Origin: a virus
Lineage: Duplodnaviria; Caudoviricetes
DNA length: 41,708 nucleotides
IMG/VR virus record: IMGVR_UViG_3300037308_000090
Location: 1-41,708 of that record
Reading direction: 5' to 3' (one strand)
Position 1 is the first letter of the stretch; each line of letters opens with the position of its first letter. Made by a program: the position numbers and the translations under genes. Below, piece by piece: positions 301 to 41,708 of this stretch. The notes beneath the pieces are model-generated. The model was given only the letters and a program-made list of their open reading frames with translations, was not told where the DNA came from and searched no databases.

Positions 301-370
301 GGCCGAAACGGAGGAGCGTGGTCCAACCCCACCTCCTCCGTCCACCGGTTAGGCCGGTGCTGACGAGGCC
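301..370 (+). ncRNA. Hammerhead ribozyme, type II (open stem II)
   Basis: GGCC-GAAA-CGGAGGAG...CTCCTCCG-TC^-CACCGG-ttagg-CCGGTG-CTGACGA-GGCC. It has an intact CUGANGA and GAAA core, a GUC cleavage triplet (340-342) and three perfectly paired stems. Confidence 0.9.
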
Positions 371-3366: not shown

Positions 3367-3409
3367 CAAATGAATGGTTGATTTTCTTGCTACCAGGACC
3401 TATATTATT
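3367..3409 (+). promoter_or_regulatory. Sigma70-type promoter with upstream CAAATGAA box
   Basis: TTGATT (3378-3383)-N17-TATATT (3401-3406); near-copy of the - strand promoter at 41430-41472. Confidence 0.7.
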
Positions 3410-3452: not shown

Positions 3453-4055
3453 ATGACGAGAACCCAACAGTTAGCCCTAAGTTTGAAGGGCCAGGTAGTC
3501 GAGGACTACGGCTACCGTGGTGTGGTGTGGGTACAAGACCAACAGGTTCATCTTCGATACCATATCACGTATGGTGTGCACGAAGTTCGCAAGGCTGGGA
3601 ACAGCTGGCAATCAGTTCGACCCCTCATGACTTCTGACGAACTGAAGATGTTCCTCATCGAATCGGGGACCGAGAGGGCCGTCGAGCAATTCAACCCACT
3701 CGATCGTTTGTGTGCCTTGCTGGGTGGAGAGCTCGTACAGCGTTTCTCGTCTGGAGGTGGAGTTTTGGCGCTGGGAGAACACAGAATCCGTGTCTCCCCA
3801 ATCACTGGGCTTAGCCTGGTGGAGAAATCTTTAACGAAGTGGAGGGAGGTGGCCAAGCTTCTTGGGATGAAGGAGCTGTACGAGACGTTGTCTTTGGACA
3901 ATGACAGGGCCCTCAACCGTATCAAGGAGGTCATTCATCATGGAGCAGACAGTCTCAACAGAGTACAAGCCGACGCAGGAGGAAGTGCAGAAGGTTCTGG
4001 CCCGGATCAAGCAGCAGAGGGAGCGCCAGAAGAACTACCAAGCCAAGCTCGTTGA
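3453..4055 (+). CDS. Hypothetical protein
   Basis: GGAGGAG RBS; 200-aa ORF whose 3' end overlaps the next gene. Confidence 0.65.
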   Translation: MTRTQQLALSLKGQVVEDYGYRGVVWVQDQQVHLRYHITYGVHEVRKAGNSWQSVRPLMTSDELKMFLIESGTERAVEQFNPLDRLCALLGGELVQRFSSGGGVLALGEHRIRVSPITGLSLVEKSLTKWREVAKLLGMKELYETLSLDNDRALNRIKEVIHHGADSLNRVQADAGGSAEGSGPDQAAEGAPEELPSQAR

Positions 4056-4305
4056 GAAGATGGAGGTCGACCCCGAGTTCAAGGACAAAGTCATCTCCCA
4101 ACGCAAGGCGTACAACACCAGCGAGAAGGCGGTGGAACGTCGGAAGGAGTACTACGCCAAGAACAAGGAGAAGATGCTGGAGTACCGGAAGGTCTACCAG
4201 CAGAAGCAGCGGGCCGTCATGGCTCAGATCCGCGAGCAGGCCAAGGCCGCTGGCATGACCATCGATCAGTTCCTCGAGGCTCAGTTGGCTGGGCAGACCG
4301 CCTAG
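3940..4305 (+). CDS. Basic coiled-coil protein (distant relative of 142-300 and 910-1107)
   Basis: AAGGAGG RBS; RRKEYYAKNKEKMLEYRKVY resembles RKEYYEKNKDKVRNYHKEY. Confidence 0.8.
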   Translation: MEQTVSTEYKPTQEEVQKVLARIKQQRERQKNYQAKLVEKMEVDPEFKDKVISQRKAYNTSEKAVERRKEYYAKNKEKMLEYRKVYQQKQRAVMAQIREQAKAAGMTIDQFLEAQLAGQTA

Positions 4306-4641: not shown

Positions 4642-5085
4642 ATGGACATAATTGATCACCCAGCCCATTACACCAAAGGTGGCATCGAGACCATCGATTT
4701 TATCGAGGCCAAAAAACTGGGCTTCCACCTTGGCAACGTCGTGAAGTACGTTACACGTTGTGCTTTGAAGGGTGGTATAGAAGACCTGCTCAAGGCCCAA
4801 TGGTACCTCAACCGATACATTAAGTTGAAGATGAAGGAGGAGCAAAATGCCGAGCAAGGGAACATTGGTCCTGCTCAGCGGGGGCATGGACTCTGTAACT
4901 GCGTTCCACTTCGCACTCCAGGAACACTCACCAGTGAAGCTTTGCCTCGGATTCCAGTACGGTCAGGTACATGCGAAGGAGCTGGTGGCTGCTCAGAGAG
5001 TAGCTTGGGGGAAGAACATCGAGTACCGACCGATTCGTCTCCACGGGTTGGGGGGACTCTCACCTTTGACGATGTCCCCTTCTGA
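4642..5085 (+). CDS. DUF3310 family protein (T7 gp1.7 nucleotide-kinase-like domain)
   Basis: HPAHY..GGIETIDFI...GNVVKYVTR...KGGIEDLLKAQWYL signature in the first ~60 aa; TAAGGAG RBS. The C-terminal tail overlaps queC. Confidence 0.8.
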   Translation: MDIIDHPAHYTKGGIETIDFIEAKKLGFHLGNVVKYVTRCALKGGIEDLLKAQWYLNRYIKLKMKEEQNAEQGNIGPAQRGHGLCNCVPLRTPGTLTSEALPRIPVRSGTCEGAGGCSESSLGEEHRVPTDSSPRVGGTLTFDDVPF

Positions 5086-5497
5086 CATCCCAGCTCACGA
5101 ACCGGAACACGAGATCGCGTTGACGTACGTCCCAGGGCGCAACATCATTATGTTGGCCTACGCTGGAGGTCTCTGCGACTCCTACGGATGGGACAAGATT
5201 GTGGGTGGCTGGAACGCGGTCGACTACGGTGGTTACCCAGACTGCCGTGGCCCCTTTCTCAACGCAATGGAGCACGCTCTGTGTCAAGGTCTTCGCTCCA
5301 AGCTCCTCATCATCGCTCCCCTCCTCTACAAAACCAAGGCTGAAATCGTTAAGATGGGCGAGGCCCTCAGAGTTCCCTGGGCCGAGACCTGGTCTTGCTA
5401 TCGAGGTGGTGAGCGGCCATGTGGGCAGTGCAATTCCTGCTTGGTTCGAGCCAAAGGCTTCGCGGAGGCAGGGGTAATCGACCCCCTGGTGGGTTGA
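4847..5497 (+). CDS. queC: 7-cyano-7-deazaguanine synthase
   Basis: SGGMDS PP-loop, YGQ, YVPGRN, GYPDCR, TWSCY..G..PCGQCNSCLVR. Confidence 0.95.
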   Translation: MPSKGTLVLLSGGMDSVTAFHFALQEHSPVKLCLGFQYGQVHAKELVAAQRVAWGKNIEYRPIRLHGLGGLSPLTMSPSDIPAHEPEHEIALTYVPGRNIIMLAYAGGLCDSYGWDKIVGGWNAVDYGGYPDCRGPFLNAMEHALCQGLRSKLLIIAPLLYKTKAEIVKMGEALRVPWAETWSCYRGGERPCGQCNSCLVRAKGFAEAGVIDPLVG

Positions 5498-5697: not shown

Positions 5698-6586
5698 CCT
5701 CTATCACGCGTGCCATCGCAAGTACTACTGGCACTACCGGCGCCAACTCGTTCCAATTGGGACGCCAGATCCCCTTATCCGTGGGGACTTGCTCCACACT
5801 GGTATCGCTACTTGGTATCGAACTTGGGATCGGGCCTTGGCGTACAACACTGCGGTGGACAAGCTTCAGAAGTACCGCCTCCTGCCCGATGAGGAAGAGT
5901 TTCATAGACTCCTCTTCAAGTATGTTATGGACGGCTACGTTACCAAGTACCCATCCGAACCTGATTGGGACATCCTCTTTATCGAGGTACCTCTAGCACA
6001 TCGGTTGAGTTTGTGTCAAAAATGGCACATCGGTGTCGCGGACGTCGTCGTTCGGATGCATGGTGGGATCTGGTTGGTTGAAACCAAACACTCAACCATG
6101 ATTCCATCGGATTGGGAGAAAAAGTATGAACTCGACAACCAAACCTTGGGATACTGCTGGCATCTACGTCGCGCTGGCATTCCTGTTGTCGGGGTCATGC
6201 TCAACTTTATCCGCTATCCAGATGGTCGCAAGACGAAGTACCCTGAGTTCCTTCGCTCTACCTACGAGGTCAAGGACCACCTTCTCCTCGAGTGGGAAGA
6301 GGAGCAAGAGGTCGTCATGGAGGAGATCACCGGGAAATGGGAACAAGCCGTAGCTGCTTGGCCGAAGAATACCAAGGCCTGCTTCGATTGGAACCGTTCC
6401 TGTGAGTACCTTCAGGTGTGCAAGGGGTCGATCTCCCCAGCCGAGGTCGAGAAATCGTTCGTTCACCGAAGTGAAGAGAGGGAGGTGACGATTCTTAGTG
6501 AAGCTATTACCTTCAACACTCAGCTACATGATCATGATCTCCCTAAAGGAATCTCCACGGGAGACGGGAGCAGTCCTACTTCGTAA
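5663..6586 (+). CDS. PD-(D/E)XK exonuclease, Cas4/AddB-like with probable Fe-S cluster
   Basis: N-terminal CHRKYYW, G...H, E...ADVVV...LVETK, Q..GY, and C-terminal C....CEY..VC. Confidence 0.85.
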   Translation: MIVIPLDNSAISLYHACHRKYYWHYRRQLVPIGTPDPLIRGDLLHTGIATWYRTWDRALAYNTAVDKLQKYRLLPDEEEFHRLLFKYVMDGYVTKYPSEPDWDILFIEVPLAHRLSLCQKWHIGVADVVVRMHGGIWLVETKHSTMIPSDWEKKYELDNQTLGYCWHLRRAGIPVVGVMLNFIRYPDGRKTKYPEFLRSTYEVKDHLLLEWEEEQEVVMEEITGKWEQAVAAWPKNTKACFDWNRSCEYLQVCKGSISPAEVEKSFVHRSEEREVTILSEAITFNTQLHDHDLPKGISTGDGSSPTS

Positions 6587-6920
6587 GCGAGATGAGCTTA
6601 CGAACTTGGCTGCTGAGCATGTATTCACCTTGAGGAACGTTGCCGAGCGCCCTGAGATAGAGTTTATAGCTAGCGTGCAGGATCAGATGGCGCTCAACAC
6701 CTTTCTGGAGAAGGGGTGGGAACTCTTTGGGCTCTTCCACTCTCACCCCAAAACGGACCCGACTCCATCGGAGACGGACGTCCTGTTCTACTACTATAGT
6801 GAAGTGCCCATGGTCATTGTTAGTGTAAAGAAAGGGGGTTTGGGTTGGACGGTGGAAGTACGTGCTTGGATGGTCGATGGGGAATCCATCAGAGAGGAGG
6901 TGATCGAGTATGAGAATTAG
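6498..6920 (+). CDS. JAB/MPN+ (Mov34) metalloprotease
   Basis: ETGAVLL...FHSHPKTDPTPSETD matches the JAMM motif E-xn-HxH-x7-S-x2-D. Confidence 0.85.
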   Translation: MKLLPSTLSYMIMISLKESPRETGAVLLRKRDELTNLAAEHVFTLRNVAERPEIEFIASVQDQMALNTFLEKGWELFGLFHSHPKTDPTPSETDVLFYYYSEVPMVIVSVKKGGLGWTVEVRAWMVDGESIREEVIEYEN

Positions 6921-8075: not shown

Positions 8076-8084
8076 CTGAAACAC

Positions 8085-8305
8085 AGTGCGGCGTGGCAGC
8101 GCCGGGTTTGGGTTGGTGGAGGAGAGACTGTTAGTAGCTGCCCGAAGATGCGTTGGTGGGAGCCGGGTGGGGAATCCGGCCACGGGCACAAGGCAAAGGC
8201 GGGAACGGGGCGACACTGACATACCTGCTTCGCGGGTTTGCTCAGGTTACAACACACTAACACGGTGCGTTCCTCCACCGAAAGGTGTCAACTGCCACCG
8301 TGGAA
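8085..8305 (+). ncRNA. Candidate ~220-nt multi-stem structured RNA
   Basis: Nested complementary segments: 8093-8099/8292-8298, 8115-8123/8271-8279, 8129-8135/8256-8262, 8139-8144/8183-8188, 8162-8166/8176-8180, 8192-8197/8237-8242. No convincing ORF. Confidence 0.6.
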
Positions 8306-8350
8306 AATTGTCGAGGACCTAGCCCCTAGTACCGCCTGAGCCGAGGAGGA

Positions 8351-8557
8351 ATGAATATGGGTTTATTGTTAACCACAAATGAGCGTGAACGATTTTGTTG
8401 CTGGCTGAAAAACGAAATTGAAAGCGGTCAGCTTATTCTACAGCAGATGGAAAAACTTAATGTGGGGCCACTCATACAGAAAGAGAAAACAGAGATCGGA
8501 GCAGCTATTATCATTCTGCGGAAACTTCAGTCGATAGAAGAAATGCAAGTCGGCTAG
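8351..8557 (+). CDS. Hypothetical protein (cassette 1)
   Basis: Follows repeat copy 1; visibly more AT-rich than the flanks. Confidence 0.7.
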   Translation: MNMGLLLTTNERERFCCWLKNEIESGQLILQQMEKLNVGPLIQKEKTEIGAAIIILRKLQSIEEMQVG

Positions 8558-8581
8558 TCCTGCCTGAGCCGAGGAGTTCGC

Positions 8582-8821
8582 ATGATTCTACATCATCCGA
8601 TGTGTCAATTTACGCGATGCGAGATTTGTCTAGAGGATCATCGTGCCCTAGAAGCAGAACTGCAACGCCGATGTGGCGGCGGAAATTTCGACTGGCTTAG
8701 TAAGTATCACAAATTTATGCAGGGGAGACCAGGGGGCGCAGAGACGGAGTTTGGGTGGGCGACACCGCAGTCATTTGACGAGGAGAACATTCAGGCGTTT
8801 GTGGAGTGGTGGAACGCCTGA
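8582..8821 (+). CDS. Hypothetical protein (cassette 2)
   Basis: Follows repeat copy 2; its TGA stop lies inside repeat copy 3. Confidence 0.7.
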   Translation: MILHHPMCQFTRCEICLEDHRALEAELQRRCGGGNFDWLSKYHKFMQGRPGGAETEFGWATPQSFDEENIQAFVEWWNA

Positions 8822-8835
8822 GCCGAGGAGGAGAG

Positions 8836-10246: not shown

Positions 10247-10761
10247 TGGGCGAATGTAGAAAGTGTACGTATCTGGGGTGTGAGGAAGGTATTCTTTGTT
10301 GGTGCAAGAAGGGTGTTTGGTGTGAAGACGGAAAGAAGAGAGTGTACTTCAAGACCTCGGTAGACAAGAACTCCCCCCGCGTACAACAATTTGGAGAAAG
10401 GTGTAGGCACTATGAAAATGTCAATCACCAAGCAGTTCACGTTCGAAGCTTCTCATCGGTTGTTGGACTTCCCGGAGGATCATCCGTGCGCCAGGATGCA
10501 CGGGCATTCGTACCGAACAACGGTAACGTTGTCAGGTCCAGTCAAGGGGTTAGGTCCCAAACTGGGAGTGATTCTGGACTTCGGCGAGTTGAAAGAGATA
10601 TGGAAGCGAGACTTAGAGCCATTGTTAGATCACAGACACCTCAACGACACCCTCAACAGGAGGAATCCAACAGCGGAGATCATCGCAATGTGGCTTCTGG
10701 CGGCGTGGCAGGAACACATCACGGATCCGAGGATCAAAGTGGAGGAGGTAACAGTTTATGA
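10246..10761 (+). CDS. Cys-rich hypothetical protein whose frame runs through queD
   Basis: TAATG coupling; MGECRKC...CWCKKGVW...CRHY. The tail overlaps queD in another frame. Confidence 0.5.
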   Translation: MGECRKCTYLGCEEGILCWCKKGVWCEDGKKRVYFKTSVDKNSPRVQQFGERCRHYENVNHQAVHVRSFSSVVGLPGGSSVRQDARAFVPNNGNVVRSSQGVRSQTGSDSGLRRVERDMEARLRAIVRSQTPQRHPQQEESNSGDHRNVASGGVAGTHHGSEDQSGGGNSL

Positions 10762-10798
10762 AACAGCCACAGGGTGGGCAACAGCTACTTCCGATTAA
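10412..10798 (+). CDS. queD: 6-carboxy-5,6,7,8-tetrahydropterin synthase
   Basis: FEASHRL, CARMHGHSY, LDFGELK, LDHRHLN, NPTAE, VYET. Confidence 0.95.
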   Translation: MKMSITKQFTFEASHRLLDFPEDHPCARMHGHSYRTTVTLSGPVKGLGPKLGVILDFGELKEIWKRDLEPLLDHRHLNDTLNRRNPTAEIIAMWLLAAWQEHITDPRIKVEEVTVYETATGWATATSD

Positions 10799-11390
10799 CG
10801 AGATTTTCTACTCCATCCAGGGTGAGGGTCATTGGACTGGGTACCCAATGATCTTCATTCGCCTCGCCGGTTGCAACCTGAAGTGCAGTTGGTGCGATCA
10901 AGCGGACAGCGTTCCACTTGAGGGTACGAAGCTCAAGTTCACCAGAATGAGCCTCATGGAAATCGTTGAGGAGGTTTCCAAGTTCTACCACTGCAGGCGG
11001 GTATGTCTCACTGGTGGAGAACCTACGGCTCACGATTTGGAGGGTTTGGTTCAGTATCTCAGAGGTTTGGGCAAGGTTATCCATATGGAGTCCAATGGGA
11101 GCTTGTGGACCTCATGGCTCCCTCTAGTTGATTGGATCACAATCAGCCCAAAGGGGCCCATCAACTGGGACGCCTTCGAACTCGCACACGAACTCAAGTA
11201 CGTAGTAGACGCGAATTTCCAACTCAAGGATGTAATTAGCAACAAGAAGAACGTCCCTGTGTACCTGATGCCGGTAAATGATCAGTTTGCCGTGAACGCC
11301 CAAAAGATGTCGGAGGTTATCACGTTAGTGAAGAACTTCCCACAATACGCCATTTGTGCCCAGTGGCACAAGTTTATGGGGGTGAGATGA
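10758..11390 (+). CDS. queE: 7-carboxy-7-deazaguanine synthase (radical SAM)
   Basis: EIFYSIQGEG, FIRLAGCNLKCSWCD, LTGGEP, ESNG, TISPK, QWHK. Confidence 0.95.
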   Translation: MKQPQGGQQLLPINEIFYSIQGEGHWTGYPMIFIRLAGCNLKCSWCDQADSVPLEGTKLKFTRMSLMEIVEEVSKFYHCRRVCLTGGEPTAHDLEGLVQYLRGLGKVIHMESNGSLWTSWLPLVDWITISPKGPINWDAFELAHELKYVVDANFQLKDVISNKKNVPVYLMPVNDQFAVNAQKMSEVITLVKNFPQYAICAQWHKFMGVR

Positions 11391-11590: not shown

Positions 11591-11745
11591 ACTCGTACCA
11601 GTGCGTTCATGGTGTTTGGCACAGTAGGGAAGAGTCTCGGATGGCTCTCGAGTGGGCTGCTCGTGTTCACTCGAAGGACGAACTCAAACCGGGTGAGTGT
11701 TGGATCATCCTTTATCGCGAAGCTAAACAGAAAGGGAAAGCATGA
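11587..11745 (+). CDS. Hypothetical protein, 52 aa
   Basis: GGAGG RBS; ATGA overlaps at both ends (hand translation). Confidence 0.5.
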   Translation: MNSYQCVHGVWHSREESRMALEWAARVHSKDELKPGECWIILYREAKQKGKA

Positions 11746-12293
11746 ACAATAATGGGTGGGATGCCAAGAAGATTGAGGATGGCGTTCGATTGATGCTCGA
11801 AGGACTTGGTTGCGACATCAACGATCGGAACTTCGTGGGGACCCCGAAGAGAGTTGCAGATGCGTTCGCGGAGTTATTCGTTCCTCCGGATGAAGATTGG
11901 CCTCTGTTCAAGGAGGATTATTGTGGAATCGTCCTTGCAAAGAACCATATCTGCTATACGTTGTGTCCGCATCACCTGCTCCCTGTTACCCTCACAATCA
12001 GCATGGCCTACCAACCACACGGTCAATGTATCGGACTTTCGAAGCTGCCTCGAATGGTTGCTGACGTTAACAGAAAACCTCTCCTTCAAGAACAACTCAC
12101 AGCCACCCTTGCTGACCGTTTATATAACATACCAGGATCAGGAGGGTCAGCTGTGTTCGTTAAGGGTCGACATTCCTGCGTCAGCATCCGAGGTATCAAA
12201 TCTCCTGCGGAAGTCATTACAACAGCAGTTAGGGGATCTTTCGAGCAACCAGAGGCATGGGATAACTTCTGTCGGATAGCGGTGGGCCAATGA
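11742..12293 (+). CDS. folE: GTP cyclohydrolase I
   Basis: TPKRVA, LCPHHLLP, GLSKLPR, LQEQLT, HSCVSIRG. Confidence 0.95.
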   Translation: MNNNGWDAKKIEDGVRLMLEGLGCDINDRNFVGTPKRVADAFAELFVPPDEDWPLFKEDYCGIVLAKNHICYTLCPHHLLPVTLTISMAYQPHGQCIGLSKLPRMVADVNRKPLLQEQLTATLADRLYNIPGSGGSAVFVKGRHSCVSIRGIKSPAEVITTAVRGSFEQPEAWDNFCRIAVGQ

Positions 12294-14584
12294 CAGAAAT
12301 CGCAATCGACCTCAGCACAACTCAACGCGCGGTTTGTGGTTGCTACGCCACCTTCCCAGGAACACGTCATGTTCGGGGGGTTGGGCCCTCTCCAAAACCT
12401 AGGATGATGATTATTGGGGAGGCTCCTGGTGAGGATGAGGATCGAGAGGGAGTTCCCTTCTGCGGCTCCACGGGACGTATGCTCTACGTCTTATGCCGTC
12501 AGGCTGGATTCCGCCGAGATGAGTGTTATATCACCAACGTGGTTAAACACCGACCACCTAGCAACAACATCTCCGCGGTATCTTGGGACAATCTGTCTAA
12601 GCAGTACGAGCTCTTGTGGGAAGAGATTAAGTTAGTCCAACCCAACATCATCGTCCCACTAGGTGAAACTGCTCTCAACGCCTTCGCCAAGGAAGGGATT
12701 ACGGATTGGAGAGGAAGTCTCCTTGAGTGGAATGGGTTTAAGGTCCTGCCAACCTACCATCCATCCTACCTCTTCAATTTTAGAGCACCAGAGATGTGGA
12801 CTGTGGTGGTCGAGGATTTGAGGAAGGCTTGGCGTTTCAGCGACACTCCAAACTATGCCGCCCCAGTCCGTGATTATCGTAAGTACCCCACACGAGGAGA
12901 ATGGGAACATTGGGTGGAGAGTGTGAAGCCTAATGAGCCAATGGTTGTTGATATTGAAACCTTGGAGGAGGATTGGAGTGATATTCGCCTTCTTGGTTTC
13001 AGCAACAAGACCCGATTCGCCATCTGCGTTCCTCCGGACCCAGATTTCGTTCCAGGGCTCCTAACGTTGATGAACAAACCCCTGAGGTGGATTCAACAGA
13101 ACTCCTTCTTCGATGAGGACAAGATTGAGAACACCTTTGGGATTCGACTCGTTCCATTCTACGATACGATGTTGGCTCATCATCTGATTGCTCATTTCCT
13201 TCCACACAACTTGGGTTTCATGGGTTCGATGTACACAGACATGCCCTACTGGAAACACCATGCCGGTGAGGATCTGAGACACTACAACTGTGAGGATTGT
13301 GACGGAACCTTTCAGGTGTACGAAGGTCAAATGATGGACCTCGGTAAGTACAAAATGCTTCCTCTCCTCAGGTTGGTGATGAGAAATCAAAAGGTTGTCT
13401 ATAAGATGAGGAGGAGGGGAATCTGCTTCAACACACCGAAGTGTGAGAAGGTAGGCAGTAAGTACATGAACAAGGCTGCTGAGCTTCTCTGTGAGATGCA
13501 ACACCTTGTTGGTATCAAGTATCTCAACCCAGATTCTCCTCAGGAGATGGCTGACGTTCTGTACAACAAGTTGAACCTCGCTAAGCAGTTTCGGGTCGAT
13601 AAACATACGAGAGAGAAGAAGGTTACTACCAACAAAAAGGCATTGGACAAGTTGATGGAGGAGAACCCCAATCTGCCCTTTATGAAGTGTCTGAAGGAGT
13701 ACAGGCACTTGGTGAAGATGGTCCGTACCTATATCCCCAAGGAGTTTGAGATGGTAGGCGAGGGTTTAGGAATCGCTTACTTTGATTGGAAGATGAATGG
13801 TACGGAAACGGGGAGGTACTCAAGTCATGTTCATACTTATCCGCCAGAGATGAGGTGGGTTATTGTTCCGCGTCCGGGCTACAAACTTGGGTACTATGAC
13901 TACAGTCAGCTCGAGTTTCGGATTGATATGTATGAGAGTCAAGATCCGATCGGGATGGAACTCCTCAACTCAGGTGGCGATATACATCGTATGTGCGCAG
14001 CCAAAGCATTTAAGAAACCACCTGAAGACATCAGCGGCTTGGAACGATTCATGGCGAAGTTCGTTGTTCATGGTTGCCGCTATGGTAGGGGTGCTGAGGA
14101 TGTAGCAAAGCAGTTCGGGTGTTCAATACCAGAAGCGGAGGGAATCATCGAAACGGTTCTTGGTCCGTTTAGGAGGTACATGGAGTTTCGAGATGCTCAA
14201 GTCGATCATGTCAGACAACATGGTTGGCTTGCCAACTGGATTGGACGCCGCCGTTATTGGCCCAAAGGTGTAAATGTTCCCGAGGTCTACAACTTCAGGC
14301 CCCAGAGTGGTGGCCATGATATTTTGATGTTTGCCGCAGCAGAAGTTGAAGAGCAACTCGGGGACCAAGTGCACATCATTGCGGACATGCATGATGGGTT
14401 GTTGACCGAGGAGCCTATTGAAGACACCGATGGGACGCTGTGCAAGCGAGTTGGAGAGCTTATGGGTATGGAGTACATGCCTGGTTTATCCGTTCCAGGG
14501 AAGGGTGAAAACGCAATGAATTGGGGTGTCCTCGATGACCGATACACCCCAGAGGGAGAGTGGGCTTTCCTCAAGGAGGAGTGA
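12290..14584 (+). CDS. Family A DNA polymerase with N-terminal family-4 uracil-DNA glycosylase-like domain and 3'-5' exonuclease
   Basis: UDG: IGEAPG..ED..G.PFCG..G, TNVVK.RPP.N, PTYHPS. Exonuclease: DIET, N..FD, YNCED. Polymerase: TGRYSS, DYSQLEFR, RFMAKFVVHGCRYG, MHDG. Confidence 0.92.
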   Translation: MTEIAIDLSTTQRAVCGCYATFPGTRHVRGVGPSPKPRMMIIGEAPGEDEDREGVPFCGSTGRMLYVLCRQAGFRRDECYITNVVKHRPPSNNISAVSWDNLSKQYELLWEEIKLVQPNIIVPLGETALNAFAKEGITDWRGSLLEWNGFKVLPTYHPSYLFNFRAPEMWTVVVEDLRKAWRFSDTPNYAAPVRDYRKYPTRGEWEHWVESVKPNEPMVVDIETLEEDWSDIRLLGFSNKTRFAICVPPDPDFVPGLLTLMNKPLRWIQQNSFFDEDKIENTFGIRLVPFYDTMLAHHLIAHFLPHNLGFMGSMYTDMPYWKHHAGEDLRHYNCEDCDGTFQVYEGQMMDLGKYKMLPLLRLVMRNQKVVYKMRRRGICFNTPKCEKVGSKYMNKAAELLCEMQHLVGIKYLNPDSPQEMADVLYNKLNLAKQFRVDKHTREKKVTTNKKALDKLMEENPNLPFMKCLKEYRHLVKMVRTYIPKEFEMVGEGLGIAYFDWKMNGTETGRYSSHVHTYPPEMRWVIVPRPGYKLGYYDYSQLEFRIDMYESQDPIGMELLNSGGDIHRMCAAKAFKKPPEDISGLERFMAKFVVHGCRYGRGAEDVAKQFGCSIPEAEGIIETVLGPFRRYMEFRDAQVDHVRQHGWLANWIGRRRYWPKGVNVPEVYNFRPQSGGHDILMFAAAEVEEQLGDQVHIIADMHDGLLTEEPIEDTDGTLCKRVGELMGMEYMPGLSVPGKGENAMNWGVLDDRYTPEGEWAFLKEE

Positions 14585-34719: not shown

Positions 34720-35787
34720 TTACGAGATGGTGTGCAGAACTCCCTGCATGCGGCGGTTGCTGGTGGTGAGCTCGCCCTTTACCACCACCTGAGCCACACG
34801 ATCGAGCTGCTTGGGAATGGTTTTCCACGGCGTCATGTAGAAGTACGCCGAGGACTCCGCGATGAACTCGAGGTACCGCTCGTTCAGGAAGCGGATCTCG
34901 GTCTCAGGAGCGGAGGGGCTGTAGGTGATGGCCATGCCCTTGTACCGCAGAGCCTCGAAACCAGCGTCGCCCATATCCCGATCGTACACCTGCAGGAGCT
35001 GGGTGAGCGCGGACTCGTAGTTCTCGTACACCAGGCTGTGACCGATCCCCAGGGTTGGGTGGTCGTTGCCGATGGAGCACAGAGTGTACAACTTACGGAA
35101 GTTGTACGCGTAGCTGTTGTCGCCGGACGGCATGGCGGCAACTTCCCACGTTCGGGTCTTGTTCTGCCAGTACGTGTTGGTGGCCGCATCGATGCCACCG
35201 ACAGCACCGCTCGCTGGGTTGGCCGTGGGGACGTTCTGAACTAGGGCCTGGATGCCCAGCAGATCGAGACCACTGTTCCCGGTGCCGTCCCCAAAGACCA
35301 TCGTCTCCAGGGCGTCGATCATCGAGAGCTCGAGGTTCTTGAGCTTGGTCTCAGCCAAGTTCATGATGGCCTCTTTGTTTTTGTTCTCGGTGTCCTCGCT
35401 GAACAACCGCATGAGGGATCCCGCCACGTACTTCCAGTTGTACTGGGCGGTCGTGACGATCTGCGGGTTGGCCAACTCGATCTCGGCACCAGGTGCGATG
35501 GAGCTGACGGTGGTGTTCTTACCGTACATCACCTGGACGCCGATCCAACGACCACCGGACTCCTTCCGGATCCGGCCCCGCTTGTTCAGCCAATACCACA
35601 ACGGGGTGGCGTTGAAGATGTTGTCCACAGCCTCCCCACGCATCAGCTGCCACGTGGTGGAGTAGTAGTTGTCGAGAACCTCCGTGATCGACTCCGGAGA
35701 TGCGGCGCCGAACATGATCGGCAGGAACTTCCGATCGAAGGTCGGCCGGTAAACCTTGTTGGGTGCCAACTGGATGTAGGGTTTCAT
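34720..35787 (-). CDS. Major capsid protein
   Basis: Start MKPYIQL overlaps the scaffold stop (ATGA); DNIFNATPL..WL, GDGTG, GGID...NTYWQN, GFEALRYKG, FLNERYL, GELTTSNRRMQG; strongly biased codon usage. Confidence 0.88.
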   Translation of the reverse strand: MKPYIQLAPNKVYRPTFDRKFLPIMFGAASPESITEVLDNYYSTTWQLMRGEAVDNIFNATPLWYWLNKRGRIRKESGGRWIGVQVMYGKNTTVSSIAPGAEIELANPQIVTTAQYNWKYVAGSLMRLFSEDTENKNKEAIMNLAETKLKNLELSMIDALETMVFGDGTGNSGLDLLGIQALVQNVPTANPASGAVGGIDAATNTYWQNKTRTWEVAAMPSGDNSYAYNFRKLYTLCSIGNDHPTLGIGHSLVYENYESALTQLLQVYDRDMGDAGFEALRYKGMAITYSPSAPETEIRFLNERYLEFIAESSAYFYMTPWKTIPKQLDRVAQVVVKGELTTSNRRMQGVLHTIS

Positions 35788-36482
35788 GCTAGACTGTCCT
35801 TGTTGCCCACGACCTGCTGCCATGCACGTTCGAGAGCGGCCGCCGTCCCCTTGGTCTTGGGTTCTACAACATTCCCACCCTGAGGGTTGTTCGGCGTTGC
35901 TCCCGGAGTTGGCTTCGGTTTGGGCTGTCTTGGTCCAACTTCGGCTTTGGCAAGGTTGTAACACTGCTGGGCGGTCAGGTTCGGATTTCTCTTGGCCAAT
36001 TCGAACATCTCCTTCTGGTAGAGCCAGAAGTCTTCGTGCTTCGCCGCAGTTGCCTGGATGTCCCTGTTGGCACGATCCATCTCCGTTGTATCCCGAATCG
36101 GAGTGACCGCTGCGTTGATCTCGCCCTTGAGTGCCATCATCATGTATTGAGCGAAATCTTTCATGGACATGTTGTCCCAATCAGGCTCCGCTCCCTGTTT
36201 CGGTTGTGCCCCAGAGGTATCACCTCGAGGCCTCCCACCCTGAGAATCACCACCTTGTTTGCTGGCGATGAATTCCAGGTAGGATGGATCGAGCAGCAAC
36301 CTTGCGTACTCTTGGTTCTGCTCGGTCAACCTTGCGAGCTGAGAGGTCACCTGCTGGAACTGCTCCTGCGTGACTCCTGGGTTTGGTGGGGGAGTTCCTT
36401 CATTATTTGGAGGAGGGTTTCCGCCGGCCGTTTCTTGCCTACCGAAGTGGATTGGTTTGTTGGTCAAATCAATTCGCATCAC
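35784..36482 (-). CDS. Capsid scaffolding protein
   Basis: Pro-rich and helical, lies between portal and capsid, ends AAALERAWQQ. Confidence 0.7.
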   Translation of the reverse strand: MMRIDLTNKPIHFGRQETAGGNPPPNNEGTPPPNPGVTQEQFQQVTSQLARLTEQNQEYARLLLDPSYLEFIASKQGGDSQGGRPRGDTSGAQPKQGAEPDWDNMSMKDFAQYMMMALKGEINAAVTPIRDTTEMDRANRDIQATAAKHEDFWLYQKEMFELAKRNPNLTAQQCYNLAKAEVGPRQPKPKPTPGATPNNPQGGNVVEPKTKGTAAALERAWQQVVGNKDSLA

Positions 36483-38914: not shown

Positions 38915-40394
38915 TGTACTCTCCTCTCCTCATCCAGGTTGGTTTCGTTTGTGAACGTCGGTACGCTTCCTCGGCCTCAGCCAAGATGGCATCAATGTTG
39001 AAAGGACCAAGAACCCTGGCCTCTACTTGGTCCGCAGGTCTTGCCATCTGGTAAACATGTGCTAGGGCATCAATGATATCATCATGAGCCCCAAATGGAA
39101 ACTCCGTGAGTTCTTTCACCAAGTCTTTGAGATCTGATCGGATCCAAAATGTACCGTTGGCAAAAGGTTCGTGCAAGGCACTGATACGTCCTTCCTTTGT
39201 AATCCGAGACGAAGGACGCAGTTCTCGAATGCTAAACGTGATTCCTGAGCGGCGCATTGCCTCGCGTATGGGCCACATCAACACCCGCTGGAACATAATC
39301 GTCTCGAGTCCCACTCCAGCTGGCTTCCATGTAACATAGGTATCGAAGATCTGATCGATCATCTCGTCGACGCCCCAACGTCCATGCTTGGCGTCCATAA
39401 TGTAGATGTTGAAATCAGGGTCGACACCAATAACGCAGATTCCCGTAAAGTCTCCTCTGATACCTTGACTGAGTGCTGGATCAACAGCCATAAAATACCG
39501 AAGAGGTACGGGAGGTATTTTATCGAAGTACCTAAACCAATCTCGGTTGAAGCTCCGCTGGTCCTCATGTACTGGATCGTTCATGTATTGACAACTAAAG
39601 ATTCGAGGACCTTGTTTGTATAAAATCTGCTGCACTACTTCCTCGGTGAACCGTTCCGGCCAGATAGGAGTCCCCGGATAAGCTGGCTTACCAGTTTCCG
39701 GGTCAATGGTGACCGAGCGAAAAAACTTGTCGTAGTGTGGCTCATTCTCAATTACCCAGCTGATCAAGTCGTTGAAGGCCCACCGAGTTCCAACCACGAT
39801 GTTCTGATACGTTGCTGGGTTCACCGACAAGCTCACAGAGTACTTATGCCAGTCAACCACCTTCTGCATTTGCTCCGGGGTGAGAATCTGATCATCGCCA
39901 ACCAAGTCGTCCTCAACAATTAGATCGTAGTGACGACTGGTAGCTGTAGACTCAACGCCCATTGCCTCGAAGGTGGCTTCTGGGTGGAATTCCGTACGTT
40001 TGATCTCAAATTCAGTGGCAGTGCACTTAGTGGTCTTGAAGTCGGGAATGATCTCGGGGAAGAGCCAACGGAACATCTCATTCTCTTTGTAGAATGAGAT
40101 GATCTTCCTGAGGAAGTGCTGTGCGTTGGTTGCACTTTCGTTGACGAGCAACGTTCTCATGTTGGGATTGCGGATGGTCAACCAAGTTGGGTAGCCTATT
40201 GTAGCAATGTGTGATTTAAGATGCCCTCTAGGTAGGACAAGCAACTTGTGCCTGCTCTGCCCATATTGAAGGAAGTTACACACATCTTTGTGTAGTTGTG
40301 CCGTCATGTCTCGGTAGCCGAAGACCACCTTGCAACAGAAGTAGAGACTGTCTGTTGCCTGCTGACGCATAAATTGACGAAGGTCTTCAGCCAT
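38835..40394 (-). CDS. terL: Terminase large subunit
   Basis: LPRGHLKS Walker A, SRHYDLIVEDD Walker B, VGTRW, AVDPA....GDFTG, HDDIIDAL nuclease motif. Confidence 0.95.
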   Translation of the reverse strand: MAEDLRQFMRQQATDSLYFCCKVVFGYRDMTAQLHKDVCNFLQYGQSRHKLLVLPRGHLKSHIATIGYPTWLTIRNPNMRTLLVNESATNAQHFLRKIISFYKENEMFRWLFPEIIPDFKTTKCTATEFEIKRTEFHPEATFEAMGVESTATSRHYDLIVEDDLVGDDQILTPEQMQKVVDWHKYSVSLSVNPATYQNIVVGTRWAFNDLISWVIENEPHYDKFFRSVTIDPETGKPAYPGTPIWPERFTEEVVQQILYKQGPRIFSCQYMNDPVHEDQRSFNRDWFRYFDKIPPVPLRYFMAVDPALSQGIRGDFTGICVIGVDPDFNIYIMDAKHGRWGVDEMIDQIFDTYVTWKPAGVGLETIMFQRVLMWPIREAMRRSGITFSIRELRPSSRITKEGRISALHEPFANGTFWIRSDLKDLVKELTEFPFGAHDDIIDALAHVYQMARPADQVEARVLGPFNIDAILAEAEEAYRRSQTKPTWMRRGEYNAEGAVWSKRFQSGEERIGGGTFPRS

Positions 40395-40911
40395 TGATCG
40401 TCTTCATCGACATCTCCTGAATCACCGTTCGGGCAAACTCAATGATGTCAGGAGGTAGGTTGACAACCTGAGATACCTGGTGACGCTCTACCGGTTTGTA
40501 TCCAGCTCGATCAGCAAGATCCCTACCTGCATCCAGCTGCACCTTCTCACTCTGCGCCGACCTCATCAAGGTAGCGATCTTAGCAATTGCCTCTGGTGCG
40601 AGGTTCTGCAACTGACAATCCACCAACGTCTTAATAGTGGAGTGAAGCTCAGAACGTCGAGACTCAAGGAGTTCCTTGAACGATGGCTCCAACATCCACC
40701 TTGTGACACATCCAGCTGACACTCCAAGTTGGTTCGCAATATCCACACGGGGTGTCCCAAGGAGAATGAGTTCGATAGCTACCATCTTCTTCTGATCGAT
40801 ATCGGACGTACCGTGAACGGTGTCCGTGATAGCTTGTAGGCTATCCTCGATAGTGAGATCGGGAGCCTTGTCGTAGAGCTTCATTGGTGCCGAGTTCATT
40901 CTCAAACTCAT
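40387..40911 (-). CDS. terS: Terminase small subunit (HTH)
   Basis: IANQLGVSAGCVTRW HTH, SEKVQLDAGRDLADRAG; immediately upstream of terL. Confidence 0.8.
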   Translation of the reverse strand: MSLRMNSAPMKLYDKAPDLTIEDSLQAITDTVHGTSDIDQKKMVAIELILLGTPRVDIANQLGVSAGCVTRWMLEPSFKELLESRRSELHSTIKTLVDCQLQNLAPEAIAKIATLMRSAQSEKVQLDAGRDLADRAGYKPVERHQVSQVVNLPPDIIEFARTVIQEMSMKTING

Positions 40912-41560: not shown

Positions 41561-41597
41561 GGGGGGGCGGGGGAGTGTGGGGGGTGGGGTGGGGTGG
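41561..41597 (+). other. G-quadruplex-like G-tract cluster
   Basis: G7-C-G5-AGTGT-G6-T-G4-T-G4-T-GG. Confidence 0.6.
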
Positions 41598-41708
41598 TCA
41601 GGCTACGTGATAGGTTCCCAACCTTGGTACGTACAGTGAATAAATGAATTTGTCGGATAGAGTGTAAGACAGGTTAACAATCAAGTTAACCTGAAAACGG
41701 CCGAAAGG
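41582..41708. repeat. Terminal direct repeat, right copy
   Basis: Identical to 1-127. Confidence 0.95.

Follow-up and report, generated by a model that had tools for sequence, protein, structure and literature searches.

A type II hammerhead ribozyme motif flush with the stop codon of a small gene in a circular tailed-phage genome

Results

Genome and gene order at the locus

The DNA analysed here (the window; 41,708 nt) is a closed circle of 41.6 kb, in which positions 1-127 were identical to positions 41582-41708. The record is classed under direct terminal repeats and has a CheckV completeness estimate of 54%. A second assembly consisted of a 41,611-base contig with the circle opened elsewhere. 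Given this and the terminal repeat, position 1 is arbitrary. Two DNA runs labelled freshwater metagenome are possibly the contig's own source and thus do not constitute independent support.

The 42 proteins scanned were those of a tailed phage, with terminase, portal and capsid genes on the - strand, and QueC, QueE, GTP cyclohydrolase, a Sak4-like protein, a family A polymerase and a primase on the + strand. The gene at 142-300 (gene 1) was the first rightward gene beyond the point at which the two gene arms diverge. A preliminary description of this DNA had called it the first gene, with the leftmost early transcript. As a statement about the end of the sequence this reflects only where the assembly opened the circle, but as a statement about the rightward arm it holds, and gene order, its only basis, makes "early" a fair reading. 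The locus comprises the following features.

57-91, + strand: conserved block (direct repeat D5) lying 85 nt ahead of the gene 1 ATG, possibly a promoter or a regulator site
142-300, + strand: gene 1, encoding a 52-aa basic protein, with a Shine-Dalgarno-like GGAG and the stop codon UAA at 298-300
301-370, + strand: type II hammerhead motif
371-909, + strand: post-ribozyme region of about 540 nt, probably non-coding, with no convincing ORF
601-790, no strand assigned: the tract with the highest AT content in the genome (GC of 16% per 100 nt, against 52%), possibly an origin of replication or a regulatory region
755-795, - strand: promoter-like motif AAATGAA-N26-TATATAAT, pointing leftward on the strand opposite the ribozyme and gene 1, one of three copies with equal spacing
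910-1107, + strand: gene 2, a paralogue of gene 1 (proteins 59% identical), followed by a terminator-like hairpin at 1165-1197

Gene 1 had a codon score of 0.55, above the in-frame median of 0.26. Its protein had no Pfam or PHROG family, and its Atlas neighbours were hypothetical proteins. The upstream block recurred before gene 2 at 823-857 (86% identical). These were its only two copies in the genome, and the 35-nt block sits 85-87 nt upstream of both genes. The duplicated unit consists of the block plus a small basic gene (57-300 and 823-1107), and the gene 2 unit contained no hammerhead. A further gene, at 3940-4305, has a Lys/Glu/Tyr-rich repeat similar to that of genes 1 and 2. The hairpin at 1165-1197 was the only + strand terminator predicted in 1-1300, none being predicted between gene 1 and 1165.

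The ORFs in the post-ribozyme region (470- or 497-646, and 505-597) had codon scores of 0.07, 0.01 and -0.02, where the in-frame 5th percentile was 0.078 and the off-frame 95th percentile 0.153. The candidate at 497-646 is preceded by GGAGG and accounts for the score of 0.01; no gene with a ribosome-binding site lay within 60 nt of the ribozyme. Folding of 371-600 gave nothing unusual that would indicate a structured RNA (z of -0.75 on the + strand and -0.69 on the - strand). The AT-rich tract is flanked by 22-nt inverted repeats at 590-611 and 776-797. Written as AAATGAA-N26-TATAT[AT]AT, the promoter-like motif occurred three times with identical spacing, at 3368-3408 (+), 41471-41431 (-) and 795-755 (-). 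The copies at 3368-3408 and 41471-41431 precede gene blocks; that at 795-755 crosses the AT-rich tract and has no clear ORF behind it.

Searches for close relatives of the phage with gene 1 recovered only the phage itself, and none were found through the primase, the small terminase in metagenomes or the upstream block. A blastn search with 40-1200 yielded matches of 30-35 nt only. Six distant loci, comprising four terminase relatives (23-38%) and two records from polymerase and capsid searches, were without a hammerhead.

The hammerhead motif

The motif at 301-370 is an intact type II hammerhead with a predicted cut between C342 and C343, that is, 42 nt 3' of the gene 1 stop codon. Its parts, and the neighbouring segments that bear on its folding, are listed below.

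291-294, + strand: GGCT within the final codons of gene 1, a competitor that can pair with 301-304 (from folding)
300, + strand: A300, with which the UAA stop ends, predicted to form a Hoogsteen pair with U349 (from conservation in relatives)
301-304, + strand: 5' strand of stem II, GGCC, pairing with 367-370
305-308, + strand: core GAAA (G12, A13, A14, A15.1), from sequence and the Rfam match
309-340, + strand: stem III hairpin (309-316/333-340, then 318-321/329-332), from pairing probability and compensatory changes
340-342, + strand: GUC triplet with the predicted cut C342/C343, from the hammerhead consensus
343-359, + strand: stem I hairpin of 6 bp, CACCGG (343-348)/CCGGTG (354-359), with loop I TTAGG at 349-353
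360-366, + strand: core CUGACGA (C3 to A9; G362 is G5 and G365 is G8)
367-370, + strand: 3' strand of stem II, GGCC
380-383, + strand: GGCC, a second competitor (from folding)

The core elements CUGANGA, GAAA and NUH carried no substitutions. Three helices close the core, with 7, 4 and 8 pairs by the descriptor; stem II is open and loops cap stems I and III, which is the type II permutation. U349, the first base of loop I, corresponds to position 1.7, and A371, immediately 3' of stem II, to the purine of the R...A tertiary consensus. Type II identity, the coordinates of the element and a cut after C342 had all been proposed in the preliminary description. The coordinates agree with the sequence, and both the identification and the predicted cut are supported by the sequence and by covariation among relatives (below). 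Loop I had been given as TTAG and is in fact one nucleotide longer.

A comparison with the Rfam hammerhead models by Infernal, which had been suggested as a check, gave a qualified answer. At the E-value level RF02276 (Hammerhead_II) was the sole match in the whole window, at 301-374; its E-value was 0.025 there and 2.4e-4 when 401 nt were searched. Its score of 30.3 bits, however, falls under the gathering score of 37 bits, and at gathering level the window had no Rfam match. A DUF805b match at 350-383 (12.7 bits, E 0.82) was taken as chance. A descriptor covering the three hammerhead topologies, run on both strands of the window, found 301-370 as its only site. In 100 dinucleotide shuffles of both strands it found one match with all stems of at least 4 bp and none in which the stems totalled at least 18 bp. 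Taken together, the Rfam E-values, the unique descriptor site and the shuffle counts indicate that the motif is not a chance occurrence. No additional ribozyme was found in the genome by the descriptor, Rfam or a custom model. The genome thus has a single hammerhead copy, and no cluster of copies flanking single genes.

Relatives of the ribozyme

Relatives were collected with three pattern scans, which returned at least 125 and at least 129 viral loci and at least 123 loci in cellular genomes. The first viral pattern fixed the core and part of stem I and gave 120 distinct copies. The second fixed only the core and the stem II strands GGCC/GGCC, and covered 15 of 64 parts of the collection; 139 distinct copies were listed, of which a stem filter kept 115 and dropped 24. 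Stem II, being fixed by the search pattern, lies outside the covariation test, and the relatives lack phylogenetic independence. For one strict pseudoknot-free pattern about 530 stored viral stretches were estimated.

Two hammerhead forms were apparent among the matches listed from the first scan, 90 with a long loop I and 30 with a short one, and the present copy is short-looped. A pseudoknot between loop I and the 3' tail was possible in 75 of the 90 listed long-loop copies (shuffled mean 20.6) and in only one of the 30 short-loop copies; a second short-loop set gave 11/101 among the matches listed, against 8.5 after shuffling. In the present copy the loop TTAGG is unmatched in the adjacent tail, so that the RF02276 pseudoknot (at least 4 bp) is absent. 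On its sequence, this copy is assigned to a common pseudoknot-free form with a 4-bp stem II, a 6-bp stem I and a 5-nt loop I. Rfam's type II model would miss this common form if the score of the present copy, the only one scored, is typical.

The stem I region was 17 nt long in 101 of the 115 filtered viral copies among the matches listed, and in those 101 all four Watson-Crick pair types occurred at positions 1.1-1.5. An alignment of 55 copies showed changes on both sides at 6/6 stem I pairs and 4/6 stem III pairs; it comprised the window and 54 of 58 candidates, four with a bulged stem III being omitted, and all had been preselected for a paired stem I. The cleavage triplet was GUC in 104, GUA in 10 and GUU in 1 of the 115 filtered viral copies listed. 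Six viral contigs carry runs of at least three type II hammerheads of the pseudoknot-free form. Many of the relatives listed share a GTCAG or ATCAG tail, which is complementary to CUGA of the core.

Among the matches listed, the stop of an ORF of at least 40 codons lay 2-8 nt before G12 in 95/120 copies, against 812 of 24000 random positions. In the cellular genomes a stop was found within -2 to 12 nt in 33/45 listed copies that passed the structure filter and in 2/56 clear failures. For the pooled relatives listed, the stop ended no more than 6 nt from stem II in 113/151; in a further 19 it lay 8-36 nt away, and for 19/151 there was none of any ORF in the nearest 40 nt. Downstream, a ribosome-binding site and start within 60 nt were present in 95/117 listed copies of the first scan and in 66/109 of the listed pseudoknot-free relatives, of which 24 had none within 280 nt. 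The nearest such candidate in the present copy is 126 nt away.

A300 and U349

Among the pooled, filtered relatives listed, the base immediately before stem II was A in 156/156 and position 1.7 was U in 149/156. This A was absent from the search pattern. It was present in 115/115 filtered and 138/139 unfiltered viral copies among the matches listed, including 23 of the 24 that the stem filter dropped; U1.7 occurred in 111 of the same 115. Reducing the listed matches to 67 distinct stem I strands left A in 67 and U in 63. A replicate from cellular genomes gave A in 47 and U in 43 of the 47 filter-passing copies listed, compared with 17 and 7 in 57 listed clear failures, an internal control; 21 intermediate copies were placed in neither group. 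U1.7 was found in 1/89 listed long-loop copies, which have a different stem II.

The stop codon supplied the A in 61/151 pooled relatives among the matches listed. For the 112 usable viral copies listed, the A lay inside the stop in 50 (32 UAG, 13 UAA, 5 UGA), and it was kept in all 62 of the others. Since it is retained where it lies outside a stop, the constraint comes from the ribozyme, and a stop codon often coincides with it.

According to PMC11875169, two crystal structures show a Hoogsteen pair between U1.7 and the final A in the loop that caps stem II. In a type II ribozyme stem II is open, and the base immediately 5' of it, here A300, is the equivalent of that A. Both positions were conserved without covariation in the 55-copy alignment. 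The tail position after stem II was a purine in 137/156 relatives among the matches listed. The penultimate loop I position, where the consensus has a pyrimidine (83/137 listed relatives), is G352 in this copy. A contact of the form U Nm Y N - R Nm A is scored for types I-III in Fig. S5 of PMC3088659; three of its four bases are present here, which would be "imperfect" in the terms of that figure. Contacts of this class are thus already known.

The preliminary description had tentatively proposed that loop I pairs instead with CTAA at 293-296. This was rejected. Pairing of at least 4 bp with the upstream 12 nt was possible in 0/30 listed short-loop copies (shuffled mean 2.05) and in 12/101 of the second listed set (8.9 after shuffling, maximum 20), and in the alignment 40.9% of cells were paired against 34-40% in slid controls. 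The comparative data point to the predicted U349-A300 contact over loop I/CTAA pairing. In the open-access literature no paper was found that ties a stop codon to the docking A.

Predicted folding

Stems I and III were predicted to form in all folded contexts, stem III with a pairing probability of 0.98-1.0. Stem II depended on the ends chosen: its probability was 0.996 for 298-378 and no more than 0.12 once 380-383 was included. Over 280-400 (ViennaRNA) the active fold, at -47.5 kcal/mol, lay 4.5 kcal/mol above the minimum of -52.0. For 285-385 there were two competing GGCY/GGCC segments, and the minimum-energy fold was without stem II. A negative cleavage result with 285-385, the fragment that had been suggested for in vitro transcription, would therefore not refute the ribozyme. 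The folding model ignores tertiary contacts and Mg2+.

Low stem II pairing was found across the class. With 40-nt flanks the median probability among the matches listed was 0.014, with values below 0.1 in 73/109, and 33/109 listed relatives had a value equal to or below that of the window. Hence the low value calls for care in designing assays but is evidence neither of a switch nor of inactivity in this copy. The idea that the flanking GGCY/GGCC segments form a designed switch was dropped, as the window's stem II probability lies inside the class distribution. Both competitors were present in 4/115 listed relatives and are not conserved.

Discussion

Proposed mechanism

We propose, with a probability of about 0.62, that the hammerhead flush with the stop codon of gene 1 severs the transcript that carries it, at C342/C343, which would separate the gene 1 mRNA from the downstream RNA and give it a defined 3' end closed by a hairpin. 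Once + strand transcription had passed 370, stems I and II would dock through a trans-Hoogsteen pair between U349 and A300, the end of UAA, and G305 (G12) and G365 (G8) would catalyse the cut. The upstream product would be the gene 1 mRNA, carrying a 2',3'-cyclic phosphate and ending in the stem III hairpin; the downstream product would be a 5'-OH RNA opening with the stem I hairpin. With only the 4-bp stem II joining them, the products would be expected to separate. Cutting would occur during or soon after transcription and would require no host nuclease. RNA ends of this kind slow decay.

For the majority of relatives, what is released downstream is the mRNA of the next gene. Here gene 1 has no predicted terminator, the 540 nt behind the ribozyme contain no clear gene, and an upstream block of its own seems to precede gene 2. 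Given that both a terminator and an immediately following gene are lacking, the main role of this copy is probably to form the 3' end of the mRNA, as a terminator otherwise would.

Alternative explanations

The overlap with the stop codon could itself have been selected, such that a terminating ribosome prevents pairing of A300, G12 and the 5' strand of stem II, and cleavage is gated by translation. In a variant, a passing ribosome also clears the competitor at 291-294, and the cleavage rate reports ribosome traffic on gene 1. We consider such gating unlikely. Its geometry would be forced at termination: when the P site holds codon 295-297, the mRNA channel, 11 nt long according to PMC7282821, reaches about 306, so that about 295-306 would be covered. 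Blocking 260-307 reduced the predicted stem II probability to 0, while blocking 260-297 alone left it at 0.996 for a transcript ending at 378. The frequency with which stop codons supply the A, or end close to stem II, among the listed relatives is as gating would have it, but tight packing of phage genes together with a required A predicts the same offsets equally well. The listed relatives with a distant stop or none within 40 nt, and the poor conservation of the competitors, also count against it. Moreover, the dwell of a ribosome at a stop codon is short relative to typical cleavage times. A reading in which the stop codon takes part in the working of the ribozyme, with its A docking onto U1.7 and the fold forming only when the stop is free of ribosomes, is doubtful. 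If it were true, phage hammerheads of a widespread class would sense translation, and cleavage of the message would depend on how many ribosomes pass along the upstream gene.

The lack of a nearby downstream gene raises the question of whether the copy is a relic or slow, left from a cassette of stop, hammerhead, ribosome-binding site and gene in which the downstream gene has decayed (ORF 497-646) and the flanking GGCC segments trap an inactive fold. The distant start with its non-coding-like score, the paralogous unit without a ribozyme and the 285-385 minimum-energy fold would all be consistent with this. We nevertheless regard decay as decidedly improbable: core bases and stem pairs are unsubstituted, the A before stem II is retained, as are the tail purine and U1.7, no sign of decay was seen, 24/109 listed relatives likewise have no start with a ribosome-binding site within 280 nt, and predicted misfolding is class-wide. 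A link to replication seems very unlikely indeed. Cleavage would in that case free a ribosome-free nascent RNA that enters 601-790 and opens or primes an origin there, or it would shield the gene 1 mRNA from a leftward transcript starting at 795. The extreme AT content of the tract between its inverted repeats, the leftward promoter-like motif aimed at it and the phage's own family A polymerase and primase fit this idea. However, none of 197 other listed copies had a comparable tract (the largest GC drop was 0.25, against 0.46 here), and an origin role is thus not the function of the class. The 197 were those of 200 rows with 450 nt of downstream DNA, after exclusion of a row with a masked-base artefact and of the window's two entries. 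Furthermore, the cumulative GC skew tracks gene strand and has its minimum near 39,900-40,700, not at the tract, and a 5'-OH product would have no primer end of its own.

Relation to known systems

The motif at 301-370 is a known element in a known setting, hammerheads of this kind having been known in phages since 2011. As described in PMC3088659 (Perreault et al. 2011), type II hammerheads are common in bacteria, flank prophage genes, cleave in vitro and in E. coli, and were proposed to process transcripts into gene-length mRNAs. Three type II copies cleave in Desulfovibrio RNA (PMC8782182), and PMC6765202 calls the function of bacterial and phage hammerheads unresolved. In the main text of PMC3088659 the words "translation" and "ribosome" are absent and "stop" appears in the methods only; the alignments in its Dataset S1 may contain members of the pseudoknot-free form.

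The present copy shares with the type II hammerheads of RF02276 and PMC3088659 the topology, the core, an intergenic position in a phage and the proposed splitting of long transcripts into gene-sized pieces. It differs from them in having no pseudoknot between loop I and the 3' tail, a 4-bp stem II and a 5-nt loop I, a score below the cut-off, a single copy in place of a cluster, and no clear gene directly downstream. The active copies of Desulfovibrio vulgaris (PMC8782182) and of the Agrobacterium ardA locus (PMC3088659) are also near hypothetical or phage genes; their cleavage was seen in cells, whereas here it is predicted from sequence. Hammerheads that dock through a trans-Hoogsteen pair of U1.7 with A (O'Rourke et al., cited in PMC11875169) likewise have U1.7 after a 6-bp stem I, an A beside the 11.4 end of a 4-bp stem II and a purine on the other side of stem II. 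Unlike in those ribozymes, the A would come here from the open 5' flank of stem II, in the stop codon, and not from a tetraloop, and the loop I pyrimidine is missing.

What is less familiar here is the prediction that the A ending the stop codon takes part in the ribozyme fold. Since the stop codon and the predicted docking contact share this one base, A300 offers a handle for separating mRNA processing from ribosome gating. Two features merit follow-up: the stop-codon A in its predicted docking role, and the AT-rich, non-coding stretch beyond the ribozyme.

A comparable arrangement exists in the early mRNA of T7, where structured RNase III sites between early genes split the transcript and leave structured ends. 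The hammerhead would work alike without a host enzyme, leaving 2',3'-cyclic phosphate and 5'-OH ends, and there is no homology between the two.

Other features of the genome

The genes for QueC, QueE and GTP cyclohydrolase I lie at 4847-5497, 10758-11390 and 11742-12293, and this set likely represents a 7-deazaguanine DNA modification pathway; none of the 42 scanned proteins was identified as a transglycosylase. The family A DNA polymerase (12290-14584) has a uracil-DNA-glycosylase-like domain at its N-terminus, and a JAB-domain protein (Prok-JAB; 6498-6920) is encoded amid the replication genes. About 250 nt of GC-rich, apparently non-coding sequence without an Rfam match lies between ORFs at 8076-8325. 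In the adjoining stretch (8326-8830) a short repeat occurs three times at junctions of small ORFs; it includes the ribosome-binding site of the next gene and resembles a cassette joint. The ORF of the major head protein (34720-36180) has about 170 extra N-terminal residues ahead of the capsid match, possibly a fused scaffold.
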